Shown here: in pieces, positions 21,802 through 26,680 of the stretch
Position numbering within the stretch: the stretch's first letter is position 1
Layout: each line of letters starts with the position of its first letter
Source of the DNA: a virus
Taxonomy: Duplodnaviria; Heunggongvirae; Uroviricota; Caudoviricetes
Virus record (IMG/VR): IMGVR_UViG_3300029702_000002
Length of the DNA stretch: 64,000 nucleotides
Reading direction: 5' to 3' (one strand)
Program-made: the position numbers and the translations under genes
Notes under the pieces: generated by a model
What the model saw: the letters and a program-made list of their open reading frames with translations, nothing else
Database searches by the model: none
Told to the model about the DNA's origin: nothing

Positions 21802-22560
21802 TTACCATGTTCCCCATATAGGGTTTTCCAATAATCTCGCCTCCAACGAATTGGCTACTATTGCCGTTTGCAACGTTGGTTGGGGATAGTTTGCAAAGTC
21901 TGAATACTCATTTTCCTGCGTGACACGTTTATCTGCGGCATGTTTATCTGCGGCATGTTTTACACCACTTGCTATGAAATGACGCATGATGCCCAACAGC
22001 CTCCGACTGTCTGCACTATCGTTTGCTAAAACATGAGGGAGCTGAAGTTCGATTTCTACCATTTCTCCATACTTACCAACAAACTGTAGTTTGTCCGCAC
22101 TGTACTTTTTATCCCTCCTTTGGATAAGGAAACCAGTAAAAGCATCACCTGGCGATGCCAAACTATCCACCCGCTTATTGGCAAGTCGAATAAGGTTCGT
22201 GAAAGCCATACAGTGATGCGCACCCATTCCCCCAAAGAACCCTTCGCTATTAATGTTAAGATCTTCAGTTTCATGGGATGCAATAAACCCAGGCCCGACG
22301 TTGGGAAGATATCCCCCCTCAACAAAAGGATTAATCAGGATCGGCGCAATACATCCAGGTGGTAGTGATTTCAAACTTTGCATCAATGGCGTCTCGGATA
22401 TTAGACCAAGCAACGCGGCGAATTGTACTCCGTCAATATTGTTGCTGCCCCACAGAATACGTGGAGCCGCACCATTGGAAGTATGCCCATTGATCAGTTT
22501 TATCGACTGCATCACTGCAAATACCTGCAAAAACTGCGAGCGGCTTAATTTAAACGACAT
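21802..22560 (-). CDS. hypothetical protein (252 aa) containing a KHAAD tandem repeat
   Basis: ORF track; 15-bp tandem DNA repeat at ~21926-21965. Confidence 0.5.
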   Translation of the reverse strand: MSFKLSRSQFLQVFAVMQSIKLINGHTSNGAAPRILWGSNNIDGVQFAALLGLISETPLMQSLKSLPPGCIAPILINPFVEGGYLPNVGPGFIASHETEDLNINSEGFFGGMGAHHCMAFTNLIRLANKRVDSLASPGDAFTGFLIQRRDKKYSADKLQFVGKYGEMVEIELQLPHVLANDSADSRRLLGIMRHFIASGVKHAADKHAADKRVTQENEYSDFANYPQPTLQTAIVANSLEARLLENPIWGTW

Positions 22561-24466
22561 AGCTGCGCCCCTCTTTAACTTCCAGCGTAATAGTTTCCCG
22601 GAACCATGACTTCATCTCTTTATGGGAGATAATCAGCACAGTACCTCGCTCGCGAGCTTTGGACTCCAGAATACCCATGAGGCGTTCAAGACCGGCTGTA
22701 TCGAGTGCATCGTCAATTTCGTCGCCGATAAACAAATCGATGTTTTTACTCGCCCGGTTACTAACTAGATCCTGCAATGCCAAAGAACACGCAATGCGAA
22801 CCTTCCGCTTCTCACCACCAGAGAGGGTCTGGAACGACTTACTTGAACCTTTCTTCTGCACACTAATGTTGAATTTGTCGCGATACTCACCTTTTTTAGT
22901 GACATCCATCGTCGACCACTCAGCAGTAATATTCCCGTCAGACAACGTATTGAGATACTCGGCAGTGCGTGTATTCAGGAAAGGCGTAACAGACGTCAAA
23001 ATATGAGAACGCACCCCGGCAGGAGAGTAGACCTGACGAGCTTTTTCCAATAGCAACGTTTGTTCCTGAATAGCCTTCAACTCATCTTTTAAGGACTTGA
23101 AGGTAGACTTACTGGATACCAGGTTATCTTCGTGTCTGGCGATAAGAGCAATAAACGGATTAATCTCTTTTGATATACGATCGACCTCAGTACGAGCACG
23201 AGTCACAAGAGACTCAATAGCAACAACCTCCTTCTCACGATGACGCAAAGATGAGAGTTGTTTCGTAAGCTCTTCAATCCGGGCAATGATAGCCGTTACA
23301 TCAGGTGTCGTTTTAACAAGGGCAGACTCAATGCTTAACGCTTTCTCAAGATTCGTTTTGTGTTTAGCCATTGCCTCTGCAAGTGTCTTCGCCTGACCAA
23401 TTTCCTGACGTGCTTGTTCAATGAAATTCTCCTTCACCGTTGATAGATCTTCTTCGCAGTAGGCTTTGCCACAAGTAGGGCATGGTGATCCCACTTTAGT
23501 ACCAACCTCTTCTGCTTTGGTCTTAAAATTACGCGCGCGGTTCATTGCATCAGCCTGACTATTTTCTGTAGCTTTGATGCTTGCCCGAATATCAGTTATC
23601 GCACCACGAACTTTGAGCAACTTGGCGTCATGTTCTTCTTTTGAGGCTAACTTTTTGCGCTCACTTTCGATTGCCTTCTCGGTATCACGGATCTGTTCGG
23701 GAAGAGTGCGGATCTCAAGTTCAACTTCCGTTAACTCAACTTCGGCACTGGCCAGCCCAGCCAGGGCATCGTCATAACGTTTAGAACGCTCTTGCTCCCA
23801 TGATTCAGAGGAGGCTTTCGCTGACTCAATTTCTGACTGTGTTGCCTCAATGGTCGAGATTGTCGACTCCAATTTGGTTTTAACCACATCCATACGTGCG
23901 GCAGCTGCATTAGCTCGCTCACGAGCAATAGCGTAGGCGCGTGTCAGTCTGTCAACGCCAGCGGCTTCTTCTACGATGGTTTTGAGGTTTTTGTCGGACA
24001 TTCCAGGTAAATCTGGCATAGCTTCTTGGCTCGCATAGATGGAAGCCATGAAAACCTCTTTAGATGCACCGATCAGACGCTCGACGAACTCTTGCGTCAG
24101 CGCATCTTTGCCTTTCGTCATATCGCCGTCTTCACCACGAACGATAAGCCGATTTTTGAACTCTTTGTGTTTACGGTGACGAATGATCGCATATCTCTTG
24201 CCTTCATCCTCGATGGTTACTGCAACACGACAGTTCTTTTCATGGTCGGTAGACAACACATCGTCACCCTTCACACCATGAGCTGTTTCGCCATAAAGAC
24301 ACCACATCAGGCTATTCATTAGCGTTGACTTTCCAGAGCCATTACTTGATGCGGAACTATCATCACTATTAACACCCTGAATGAGCACTAAACCACGCTG
24401 ATCTAACTCGACCTCCGCGCTGGCGATAGCCATAAAATTCTCAACCTGGAGCTTTAAAAACTTCAT
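22550..24466 (-). CDS. sbcC: SbcC/Rad50-like recombination ATPase
   Basis: Walker A GSGKST, long coiled-coil, CPTCG zinc hook, C-terminal signature/Walker B. Confidence 0.85.
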   Translation of the reverse strand: MKFLKLQVENFMAIASAEVELDQRGLVLIQGVNSDDSSASSNGSGKSTLMNSLMWCLYGETAHGVKGDDVLSTDHEKNCRVAVTIEDEGKRYAIIRHRKHKEFKNRLIVRGEDGDMTKGKDALTQEFVERLIGASKEVFMASIYASQEAMPDLPGMSDKNLKTIVEEAAGVDRLTRAYAIARERANAAAARMDVVKTKLESTISTIEATQSEIESAKASSESWEQERSKRYDDALAGLASAEVELTEVELEIRTLPEQIRDTEKAIESERKKLASKEEHDAKLLKVRGAITDIRASIKATENSQADAMNRARNFKTKAEEVGTKVGSPCPTCGKAYCEEDLSTVKENFIEQARQEIGQAKTLAEAMAKHKTNLEKALSIESALVKTTPDVTAIIARIEELTKQLSSLRHREKEVVAIESLVTRARTEVDRISKEINPFIALIARHEDNLVSSKSTFKSLKDELKAIQEQTLLLEKARQVYSPAGVRSHILTSVTPFLNTRTAEYLNTLSDGNITAEWSTMDVTKKGEYRDKFNISVQKKGSSKSFQTLSGGEKRKVRIACSLALQDLVSNRASKNIDLFIGDEIDDALDTAGLERLMGILESKARERGTVLIISHKEMKSWFRETITLEVKEGRSYVV

Positions 24467-24695
24467 ATAACACCTCTGATACCGTGTGTTAGCTTTTGGC
24501 CTTCTTTCAATCTGAACTCCGTATGCGCCGGGAAGGATCTGCGCCTCAATACGCCTTTTCTTGTTAACCTTCCAAGATAAAACGCTACGGGATTTCCTTG
24601 TGGCGGGTAGGGCTTGTGAAACATCACCGTCTGGCCTCGTTCAAGTCTTTTCATCGTGATGGCAAAGTCTCGAAAGCTCCCATAACGACTTTGCC

Positions 24696-25781
24696 TCACA
24701 CAGCCTCCGAACTCTCCGCTTCGGTGAGGATTTCCTGACACAAAATATCCAACTTGCTCAGATCAAATCCGCCGTCAGTATCGTGGACAATCTTGCAATA
24801 AGCAGATACCGACTCTCCCAGGCTATCGATTTTGCTGGTTTCCGTTGTGCTTGCTGTCCCTTCCATCATTGATGACTTACGGATGAAGTTGCACACAACA
24901 CCTTTTGCACCCATTGTTTTAAGGATGTTCTGGTACTTAATGCCTTCTTCATCGTTCTCGATTACGGCGCGGAAACGCACGTAGTTGCCGCGAATTTGGT
25001 CATCGGCAACATAATCTTCCAGGTTAATGAATTTAGGCGCACTGGTTTCGTAGTGACTGAAACTGCCGTCCGGGTTTACGATCATGTAACCAGCCAGAGA
25101 TCCAACATCTCCCCAATTTTGATGGGTCAGCGCACCGACACTGATAACTCCAGGAATGACCTCTTTGTGGTTGTGGTAATGCCCACTAAGCACGAGACGA
25201 AAGCCGATATCCTTTAACTCCTGCGCATCGATACCGACGTCAGGCATTGTTGGAATGGCTTTGTTAATGGATGTATGGATAACAACGTCATGGTTATCAC
25301 CTTCTACGCTCTTACGTAATGCTTTCAGATCGCTGATAAGCTCCGCATGATTGTTACGCCAGCTAATCAGGTGGACAGTCACATCACCAATTTTTATTGA
25401 GTGTGGGCGCTTGCCACATACGATTACCACGCCGATAGAACTCAGCGATGCTGCTGCGTTGGCGCTATATACTGAATCGTTGGTTTCAAGATCGTGATTA
25501 CCGGCCAGCATTACTACTATCAGATCAAGCTCGTTGATAATCCACTTGTACGTTTCAGTTACGTAATGCAAAACAGAAGGGGACACAGTTCCTCGGACGT
25601 GAAATGTATCACCGGCAACCAACATGTACTTACAACCGGCCTTCTTCATGGCGATGGCTGCTTCTTTCGTTGCTTCCAACTGTATTTCAAGTCTGGAGTT
25701 AAGCCCCTCTGCGTTCGTCGTGGAGAACGCATCCCATTTGTGGTAGTGGCAGTCAGAAATGACGCCGTATGGCAAAGTCAT
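24696..25781 (-). CDS. sbcD: SbcD/Mre11-like nuclease
   Basis: Calcineurin-like phosphoesterase motifs (GDTFH, GNHD, GHYH). Confidence 0.85.
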   Translation of the reverse strand: MTLPYGVISDCHYHKWDAFSTTNAEGLNSRLEIQLEATKEAAIAMKKAGCKYMLVAGDTFHVRGTVSPSVLHYVTETYKWIINELDLIVVMLAGNHDLETNDSVYSANAAASLSSIGVVIVCGKRPHSIKIGDVTVHLISWRNNHAELISDLKALRKSVEGDNHDVVIHTSINKAIPTMPDVGIDAQELKDIGFRLVLSGHYHNHKEVIPGVISVGALTHQNWGDVGSLAGYMIVNPDGSFSHYETSAPKFINLEDYVADDQIRGNYVRFRAVIENDEEGIKYQNILKTMGAKGVVCNFIRKSSMMEGTASTTETSKIDSLGESVSAYCKIVHDTDGGFDLSKLDILCQEILTEAESSEAV

Positions 25782-26035
25782 GTGTTTTTCCTTTGTGGTT
25801 ATTTTGATACAAATTTTAAGAGCAATGAGAAGGTAAACAACTATGCATAACGGTATGTTAGGAATGAAACGAGCGTCTTAATATACAAAATTTATAAGTA
25901 AGTATATACCTATTTATTGTGGCGCAACTTTGCTTGTCTGTATGACTAAAAATAAGACAGGATCACTGTAGAACGCTATGAGAGCTATTTTGAGGAGGCG
26001 TAGATTCTATCTACGCCAATATACGATCTGGAGGG

Positions 26036-26680
26036 TTACAGCGCGTCAGTGGGCTTTTTACGCGCTGCGTTTATGCTTATGACGCCAGCTTTTGGACGTG
26101 GGTCAACAAGGTTAAGCTCTTCTTCGCTGTGGTATTCGAGGTCGAACTCACGTTTTACATGTCTGATGTAGATTGCGGTGAGCAGGCTATCTTTGGTCAG
26201 AAAGTGTCCGTAGGATTTGCGGATCACTTCTTCTACCTTCTCGATTTTCTCACCACCCATACAGAGATGATTAAACCGGCTGTGTTTCCGCAACATTTCG
26301 TCTACTGGGCCTGAGTAAACCTTGTCTACTTTCCCAAAACGGATGATTTTTCCTGTGTCTGCGGATACGAGGCAAATCAGCTTGTCTGGTGATAAACGAT
26401 CTCGCCACGTCACACCTGAACGGAGTGTGTTGAAGTAGGGGGCATCCAATCCGATGATCGGTTTACGAAATGCGAGTAATGGAACGTACCTGATGCAACT
26501 GTTTAAATGAAAATTCACACCAGCCTTATCAAGTTTAATTCTGGTTTCGTAGATCGGGCACTTCGCCGCTATACCGCAGATGTCACAAAGCAACTTCTGC
26601 TTATTCAGGTTGGAATTTGATTCGATAGTGTAGGATCCGTCTTCAAGACGACGAACCCAGCGCGTGCGTTTTAGATCCAT
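26036..26680 (-). CDS. hypothetical Cys-rich protein (214 aa)
   Basis: ORF track; CDICG...C...H..C cluster near N-terminus. Confidence 0.5.
   Translation of the reverse strand: MDLKRTRWVRRLEDGSYTIESNSNLNKQKLLCDICGIAAKCPIYETRIKLDKAGVNFHLNSCIRYVPLLAFRKPIIGLDAPYFNTLRSGVTWRDRLSPDKLICLVSADTGKIIRFGKVDKVYSGPVDEMLRKHSRFNHLCMGGEKIEKVEEVIRKSYGHFLTKDSLLTAIYIRHVKREFDLEYHSEEELNLVDPRPKAGVISINAARKKPTDAL

Follow-up and report, generated by a model that had tools for sequence, protein, structure and literature searches.

Sequence evidence for a small basic-protein gene between sbcD and sbcC in SSU5-like phage-plasmids

A small gene in the sbcD/sbcC interval

The window analysed here is a 64,000-nucleotide stretch of the IMG/VR virus record IMGVR_UViG_3300029702_000002 (Caudoviricetes), in which a small gene is found between the sbcD- and sbcC-like genes of a putative recombination nuclease. 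All three genes are on the minus strand, with sbcD at 24696–25781, the small gene (78 codons and a stop) at 24463–24699 and sbcC at 22550–24466. Between the sbcD stop codon (TGA, 24698–24696) and the sbcC start codon (ATG, 24466–24464) lies an interval of 229 bp (24467–24695). An earlier reading of the same DNA, made from its letters alone and referred to below as the sequence-only reading, had drawn attention to the separation of sbcD and sbcC, a hairpin, an ATG at 24654, a 63-aa Arg/Lys-rich open reading frame (ORF) and its ATGA overlap with sbcC, all of which are present in the sequence. It had also described an insert at 24463–24741. Compared to the Klebsiella rep_cluster_2469 plasmids and the phages BUCTxx99 and nickie this is a true insertion, but those coordinates are the ones of a 92-aa ORF starting with GTG, the gap itself being 229 bp.

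The 3.2-kb segment covering the three genes (22550–25781) is 99.1–99.6% identical to Escherichia phages CMS-2020a and Cyrano, and aligns without gaps to Salmonella phage SSU5 with 76% identity. With a 601-bp probe spanning the interval, 804 plasmid records are matched, 763 of them with at least 80% probe coverage; they come from Klebsiella, Escherichia, Enterobacter, Yersinia, Salmonella, Citrobacter and Cronobacter. Based on these segment identities and plasmid matches, the window can be considered an Escherichia coli phage-plasmid of the SSU5/pHCM2 type.

Selection on the small gene was estimated with Nei-Gojobori dN/dS ratios between the window and pHCM2, SSU5, pSTM_Phi and the Yersinia group. 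In its own frame the ratio is 0.08–0.14 for a 63-codon core and 0.13–0.19 for 77 codons, while the other two minus-strand frames across the gene give 0.8–1.7. The same comparisons yield 0.03–0.05 for sbcD, and for sbcC a ratio of 0.013 in the only comparison in which dS is not saturated. Set against the 0.03–0.05 of its neighbours, the small gene evolves three to four times faster. Next to these ratios, an alignment was made of 11 insert-bearing relatives, namely pGS04EC-1 (E. coli), pHCM2, SSU5, Y. pestis pG8786, Citrobacter, pSTM_Phi, Enterobacter, three Klebsiella plasmids and Cyrano. It is gapless down to 70% DNA identity, and the small frame is free of frameshifts and internal stops throughout. 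Twenty-five residues are invariant among the 78-aa-type sequences, and 14 after adding the type-B alleles, which are only 33% identical.

Because purifying selection acts in its own frame only and this frame is intact across diverged relatives, the interval is taken to be protein-coding. As read from these alignments, it is a genuine 78-codon gene within a recombination-nuclease operon, coding from end to end with no non-coding DNA left. The sequence-only reading had named a lack of the insert in relatives, together with a lack of synonymous-site conservation, as what would speak against it; the relatives keep the insert, and their substitution pattern (dN/dS) is that of a coding sequence.

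The public annotations of the gene disagree. It is absent in Cyrano and is given as 63 aa in SSU5, 92 aa in pHCM2, Citrobacter and pSTM_Phi, 88 aa in Y. pestis, 77 aa in Klebsiella, 53 aa in Enterobacter cloacae OW849523 and 78 aa elsewhere. Searches of Pfam, NCBIfam and PADLOC with the small protein matched no family, and Pfam gave zero matches for 14 members of the small-protein family at E-values up to 10. Such inconsistency, the missing Pfam or NCBIfam family and the loss of the last four codons in the Yersinia copy might be expected of a decaying remnant, or of a non-coding spacer in which a frame is open by chance. This explanation is scarcely credible, being effectively refuted by a dN/dS well under 1 in a single frame and by the intact frame and invariant residues of 11 lineages spanning 70–99% DNA identity.

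One family does match: PHROG 37951 (function unknown), with an E-value of 1.5e-38, residues 19–90 of the 92-aa translation aligning to positions 4–75 of the 77 in the profile. The only match in a PDB sequence search, yeast L25/uL23 (E 1.3), was treated as noise. The protein is known already as a hypothetical protein in some records (SSU5_074, which is YP_006906706.1, and WP_044790589.1), with no function or fold recorded, and in the literature searched these identifiers are not mentioned by any paper. New here are the assignment of the start, the evidence of selection, the fold hypothesis and the pattern of gain and allele exchange.

Start codon, junctions and hairpin

The small frame is open from a GTG at 24741, which gives the mechanical 92-aa ORF (24463–24741). 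A second GTG (24699–24697) overlaps the sbcD stop as GTGA, and lies 4 nt past a GGAGG Shine-Dalgarno-like motif read within the 3' end of sbcD (24708–24704), whose columns are invariant or nearly so among the aligned relatives. The ATG taken as start by the sequence-only reading (24652–24654) is Met16 of the 78-aa form. It is also the annotated start of SSU5_074, but has no Shine-Dalgarno sequence upstream, and its Klebsiella equivalent is shifted one codon upstream. Relatives start the small gene at the sbcD-stop junction, with an ATG within TGATG in the Cronobacter-type locus L014, an ATG within ATGA in L016, L017 and L018, and a GTG within TAGTG in Klebsiella. Moreover, the segment from this junction to Met16 carries an N-terminal motif, Y-G-x-(F/I)-R, common to alleles that are only 33% identical, and makes up most of the predicted first helix (residues 6–20).

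Since the GGAGG motif, the GTGA overlap, the starts of the relatives, the N-terminal motif and helix 1 all point to it, GTG 24699 is probably the start codon, yielding a product of 78 aa (24699–24463), and ATG 24654 as a start is probably wrong. The ORF of the sequence-only reading is therefore real and basic, but its length of 63 aa is not upheld. It is an ordinary accessory small phage gene of which the start is mis-annotated in public records.

Two longer products were rejected. The 92-aa form from GTG 24741, called by PGAP in several plasmids, does not hold as the family-wide product, given two in-frame stops in the 14-codon extension of L016 and the ATGs of relatives at the sbcD stop. A -1 frameshift fusion of SbcD to the small ORF, conceivable as the small frame is open for 14 codons inside sbcD, finds no slippery heptamer in 24741–24700, and the frame is closed in L016.

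At the other end, the small-gene stop (TGA, 24465–24463) overlaps the sbcC start as ATGA. It is preceded by AGAGG (24477–24473, minus strand), another Shine-Dalgarno-like motif read in the sequence, which is contained in the small gene's 3' end and precedes the ATG by 6 nt. This (A/C/T)GAGG motif is kept in every insert-bearing relative; the type-B alleles have a 9-nt spacer with GAGG instead of the overlap between the small gene and sbcC. To judge from the overlaps and from Shine-Dalgarno-like motifs inside each upstream gene, both junctions fit the classical signature of translational coupling. Ribosomes would pass from the end of sbcD to a new start on the small gene, and from the end of the small gene to one on sbcC, by re-initiation in each case. 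In Y. pestis pG8786 (L005), a premature TGA (AGA to TGA) is seen at the equivalent of 24475–24477, by which the last four residues of the small protein are lost and its stop is parted from the sbcC ATG.

The hairpin of the sequence-only reading (24661–24695, minus strand) falls within codons 2–13 of the small gene. It is an inverted repeat with a 9-bp stem, arms GGCAAAGTC (24695–24687) and GACTTTGCC (24669–24661), and a loop of 17 nt; when the stem is extended, the GTG start and the sbcD stop are paired as well. As a feature worth notice it does not stand out. The 81-nt hairpin region folds no better than its dinucleotide shuffles (z -0.44 to -0.55), and 41 perfect 9-bp inverted repeats with loops of 3–40 nt occur in the window, about 9 being expected by chance per 64 kb. 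The arms are confined to the E. coli lineage, pGS04EC-1 already having two mismatches. In the clade of pHCM2, SSU5, Yersinia, Citrobacter and Enterobacter, and in L014 and L016, the arm sequence is unrelated and the regions fold no better than their shuffles (z +0.3 to +1.2), the mutated arms in the pHCM2/SSU5 clade showing no compensating changes.

A functional role of the RNA or DNA structure itself (whether terminator, attenuator, processing site or small RNA), with the ORF only incidental, is very improbable. The inverted repeat exists and its extended stem would bury the GTG and the sbcD stop, and in the Klebsiella clade there is another hairpin; against this stand the unremarkable stability in the window (z -0.55), the absence of the arms in pHCM2, SSU5, Yersinia, Citrobacter, Enterobacter, L014 and L016, and the codon-periodic substitution pattern. 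A terminator or attenuator was rejected on the 17-nt loop, the lack of a U-tract (the stem is followed by AUCACGAUG), the weak z-score and the lack of conservation, and a terminator scan of 22400–26200 made no minus-strand intrinsic terminator call. A known RNA family was rejected as well, since Rfam covariance models gave no match in 24300–24900 on either strand at E-values up to 1. Neither is there a conserved RNA structure, as relatives range from z -1.8 to +1.2 with differing folds and the arms are uncompensated. The regulatory RNA suggested by the sequence-only reading thus finds no support in a hairpin that lies within coding sequence, in one lineage and with no Rfam match.

In the Klebsiella IncFIB SSU5-like plasmids (L006, L011 and L012) the other hairpin pairs GGAGG with a downstream CCTCC(C/G)C (z -1.4 to -1.8) and encloses the sbcD stop and the small-gene GTG (equivalent of 24690–24712). 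It may be an independent, lineage-specific coupling hairpin. At most, these hairpins are lineage-specific modulators of re-initiation and not a conserved RNA element; the E. coli-lineage hairpin would at most tighten the coupling by burying the GTG.

The 11-mer GACTTTGCCAT, consisting of the 3' hairpin arm and 2 nt (24659–24669), is repeated exactly at sbcD codons 1–4 (ATGACTTTGCCATAC, 25769–25779, minus strand). With one mismatch allowed, six copies are found in the window, 1.5 being expected. This recurrence is judged a chance repeat.

The insert had further been described as GC-richer. The gap has a GC content of 48.5%, the flanking genes 47.3% and 46.7% and the window 45.3%, and 28% of all 229-nt windows are equally or more GC-rich. 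Such a small difference does not set the gap apart, and a foreign GC-rich insert was rejected on the same values.

Distribution, gain and allele exchange

Homologues were sought with a profile search of 1.84 billion representatives and two word-indexed searches. In these three large searches, homologues of the small protein are found solely in SSU5-like elements of Enterobacterales and no remote homologues outside them; two weak matches (P0026 and P0027) are low-complexity, repetitive proteins and were discarded. Within these elements the gene is conserved across hundreds of plasmids and phages, and at every inspected locus it lies between sbcD and sbcC.

A comparison with related sbcCD loci, as proposed by the sequence-only reading, places the small gene in this slot in the insert-bearing relatives, while it is absent from the Klebsiella rep_cluster_2469 plasmids, a sister clade, and from the outgroup phages Stenotrophomonas BUCTxx99 and Pseudomonas nickie. 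In all of these, sbcD and sbcC overlap directly by 4 nt. Because the direct overlap is seen in the sister clade as well as the outgroup, gain is preferred over loss. Most likely, and most parsimoniously for the loci compared, the small gene was gained in the SSU5 clade at a formerly direct sbcD/sbcC overlap.

The same slot is occupied differently in Rhizobium phage RHEph10 (L020, 3593–4548), where three small ORFs of 116, 101 and 77 aa are present. Since this slot holds other small ORFs, the sbcD/sbcC junction looks like a recurrent insertion slot in a wider group of siphophages of about 110 kb. In Xanthomonas phage JGB6 (L022), several short ORFs are annotated in the region that matches SbcD; the gene may be split there or interrupted by another element, or the annotation may be poor.

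Two allele types of the small gene were found. The type-B allele (72 aa; P0024 and P0028) is about 33% identical to the window protein, on backbones where SbcD is 94–98% identical, and breakpoints of a mosaic, visible in profiles of DNA identity, lie around the small gene as well as within sbcC. When L016 (3919–7145) is compared with window positions 22550–25781 in 100-nt bins, identity in sbcD is 91–99% for the first ~1000 nt and 82% for the ~90 nt at its end. The small gene drops to about 50%, after which sbcC has 74–92% in its first ~1500 nt and 94–98% in its last ~400 nt. The 5' 450 nt of sbcC in L016 are nearest to SSU5 (85–95%), although the small-gene allele of L016 shares only 28% identity with the one of SSU5. 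The small-gene alleles are thus shuffled independently of their flanks.

Predicted product, function and comparison with known systems

The genes on either side of the small gene encode a putative phage-type SbcCD nuclease. The sbcD product is an Mre11-like metallophosphoesterase of 361 aa (Pfam Metallophos, E 2.9e-9; annotated as 'SbcD-like' in Cyrano) that matches PHROG 100, 'SbcD-like subunit of palindrome specific endonuclease', with an E-value of 5e-92. The sbcC product is a Rad50-like ATPase of 638 aa, matching Pfam AAA_23, SMC_N and SbcC_Walker_B and PHROG 77 'SbcC-like' (E 4.5e-165), with a zinc-hook-like CPTC motif read by eye in the middle of the protein. On profiles and motif, the pair thus combines a metallophosphoesterase nuclease with an SMC-like ATPase bearing a CxxC hook, as in SbcCD and Mre11-Rad50. 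Since the NCBIfam Rad50/SbcC matches are partial and all of them fall below the equivalog cut-offs, the pair is regarded as a diverged, phage-type SbcCD.

In Cyrano an ASCH-domain gene is located upstream, and a hypothetical gene, a RuvC-like resolvase and NrdA downstream, making the neighbourhood a replication/recombination module. In the window, an AT-rich intergenic region of 254 bp (25782–26035, GC 0.33–0.39) separates the ASCH-domain gene (26680–26036) from sbcD. It is likely the promoter region for an operon of sbcD, the small gene and sbcC, although a consensus scan found no minus-strand sigma-70 site in it. After sbcC follows an ORF at 21802–22560 (minus strand; 252 aa in the mechanical ORF list), which corresponds to a hypothetical protein of 247–248 aa in relatives and overlaps the 3' end of sbcC by 11 nt. 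Therefore, the chain of overlapping genes extends towards the RuvC-like and NrdA genes.

The small protein has a predicted mass of about 9 kDa and a pI of 11.7 in the window; all alleles are basic, with a pI of 10.3–11.7 and a net charge of +8 to +13. A first AlphaFold (AF2) model from a shallow alignment was unusable, with a predicted local distance difference test (pLDDT) score of 43.5. After adding two divergent type-B sequences, a pLDDT of 78.5 and a predicted template modelling (pTM) score of 0.66 were reached, so that one of the two models is confident. Its elements (helix 6–20, strand 25–28, helix 37–47, strands 51–55 and 59–64) are arranged as a helix, a strand, a loop, a helix and a beta-hairpin wing. 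The best structural match is eS10, followed by ArsR, PadR and MarR, the matches after eS10 being mostly transcription regulators; a viral fold search (BFVD) returned weak matches only, all to uncharacterised proteins. The canonical helix 2 of a helix-turn-helix (HTH) is absent, a Pro-rich loop, KPYPPxGNP, taking its place, and the wing, FPAHTEF, is the most conserved block, F56, H59 and E61 being invariant. With moderate confidence, a minimal winged-helix-like domain is thus predicted. That the sequence-only reading thought of a small nucleic-acid-binding protein agrees with the purifying selection, the conservation, the basic pI and this predicted fold; binding itself may be surmised from these properties, with low confidence.

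The favoured reading, held with somewhat more than even confidence, is that this genuine 78-codon gene of the SSU5-like sbcD/sbcC operon encodes a dispensable accessory factor of the SbcCD-like nuclease, presumably one that binds nucleic acid. The small protein would be co-produced with the nuclease, would bind DNA or RNA, and might anchor the nuclease complex to DNA or DNA ends, guide it there, or adjust its activity. An accessory role together with the SbcCD-like complex is favoured because of the exclusive linkage of the gene to its slot and because of a precedent, LmuC of the Lamassu defence system.

Several observations weigh against this role. The functional tie to SbcCD is inferred solely from position and overlapping codons. 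The rep_cluster_2469 plasmids, with an SbcD 70% and an SbcC 55% identical to those of the window, do without the gene. In RHEph10, the 77-aa ORF (gp062), the only one of the three that was compared, is dissimilar to the small protein (hhalign E 0.45). The 33%-identical allele sits between flanks whose own alleles are shuffled independently, and the N-terminal 14 codons are weakly constrained (omega 0.3–0.65). As for the fold, Pfam, PDB sequence searches and hhalign give no sequence-level link to any winged-helix family. Against an approximate sequence of human eS10, hhalign gives an E-value of 0.33 and a probability of 0.18, and S10_plectin (PF03501) is not matched in Pfam by any of the 14 members at E-values up to 10. 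Absence in relatives, other occupants of the slot and allele shuffling fit a free-riding accessory gene about equally well.

Another possibility, clearly less probable, is therefore a real small gene acting independently of SbcCD, a moron-like gene for which the sbcD/sbcC junction, being permissive and well expressed, serves as a landing slot. It could then act as a small winged-helix transcription regulator, or as a host-takeover, anti-defence or exclusion factor. The junction being empty in near and distant relatives, the three small ORFs of RHEph10 with a dissimilar 77-aa one, the three to four times faster evolution, the ~33%-identical alleles with mosaic breakpoints on 94–98% SbcD backgrounds, and the transcription regulators among the structural neighbours would all suit such a gene. 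However, a generic moron is expected to move, and no homologue was found outside the exact slot. The start and stop overlaps on both sides are moreover kept across lineages, PADLOC gives no match, and a protein of 78 aa with a degenerate helix 2 would hardly be expected to act as a classical dimeric HTH repressor, although it still could.

A bolder form of the accessory role, considered unlikely, would make the small protein a hitherto unrecognised third subunit of a phage Mre11-Rad50-type nuclease. It would associate with the SbcC-like ATPase as well as with DNA and determine the substrate or end specificity, the two ~33%-identical alleles differing in this specificity. Counterparts of such a subunit would be LmuC in Lamassu, or the winged-helix 'kite' and kleisin modules known from SMC complexes.

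If the small protein does work with the SbcCD-like nuclease, it would provide a simple example from a bacterial virus of a DNA-binding accessory subunit of Mre11-Rad50; otherwise, the gene is just another small accessory gene of phages. In either case, an annotation is corrected for a gene on hundreds of clinically common phage-plasmids of Enterobacterales, although the practical value is modest. The carriers include S. Typhi pHCM2, Y. pestis pMT1-related plasmids and SSU5-like elements of Klebsiella and E. coli. The orphan family PHROG 37951 gains a fold hypothesis and a defined start codon.

Among known systems, Lamassu offers a parallel for an accessory role. Its genes are ordered as effector, small protein and ATPase. 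In this LmuA-LmuC-LmuB arrangement (DdmABC), as in the window, a small protein is encoded beside an SbcC/Rad50-derived ATPase. The window differs from it by a full SbcD-like metallophosphoesterase nuclease, by the phage replication/recombination context (ASCH, RuvC-like, NrdA) and by relatives that work without the small gene. The ATPase of the window matches LmuB models weakly (best E 5.5e-23) and phage SbcC far better (E 4.5e-165), and in PADLOC neither the small protein nor the nuclease matches an LmuC or LmuA HMM. Membership of Lamassu was rejected, as only the ATPase matches, and the likeness is one of analogy. Lamassu itself is an SbcCD-derived system with LmuC as its small subunit; this protein contacts dsDNA, is likely a specificity factor, and its models match HTH-type regulators (PMC12663957).

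On the level of the fold, the small protein can be likened to the N-terminal domain of eS10 (S10_plectin), to the ArsR, PadR and MarR regulators, to Z-alpha and to F-112 of SSV1, from which it differs in lacking profile similarity and in having the Pro-rich loop for helix 2. On the level of the locus, RHEph10 gp060–gp062 take the same slot, and the last ORF, of 77 aa, likewise overlaps the SbcC-like start by 4 nt (ATGA); there, three genes are present and not one. With the proteins of PHROG 37951, SSU5_074 and WP_044790589.1 there is no difference in kind: they belong to the same family and are encoded in the same slot, between a metallophosphoesterase and an AAA/SbcC-like ATPase.

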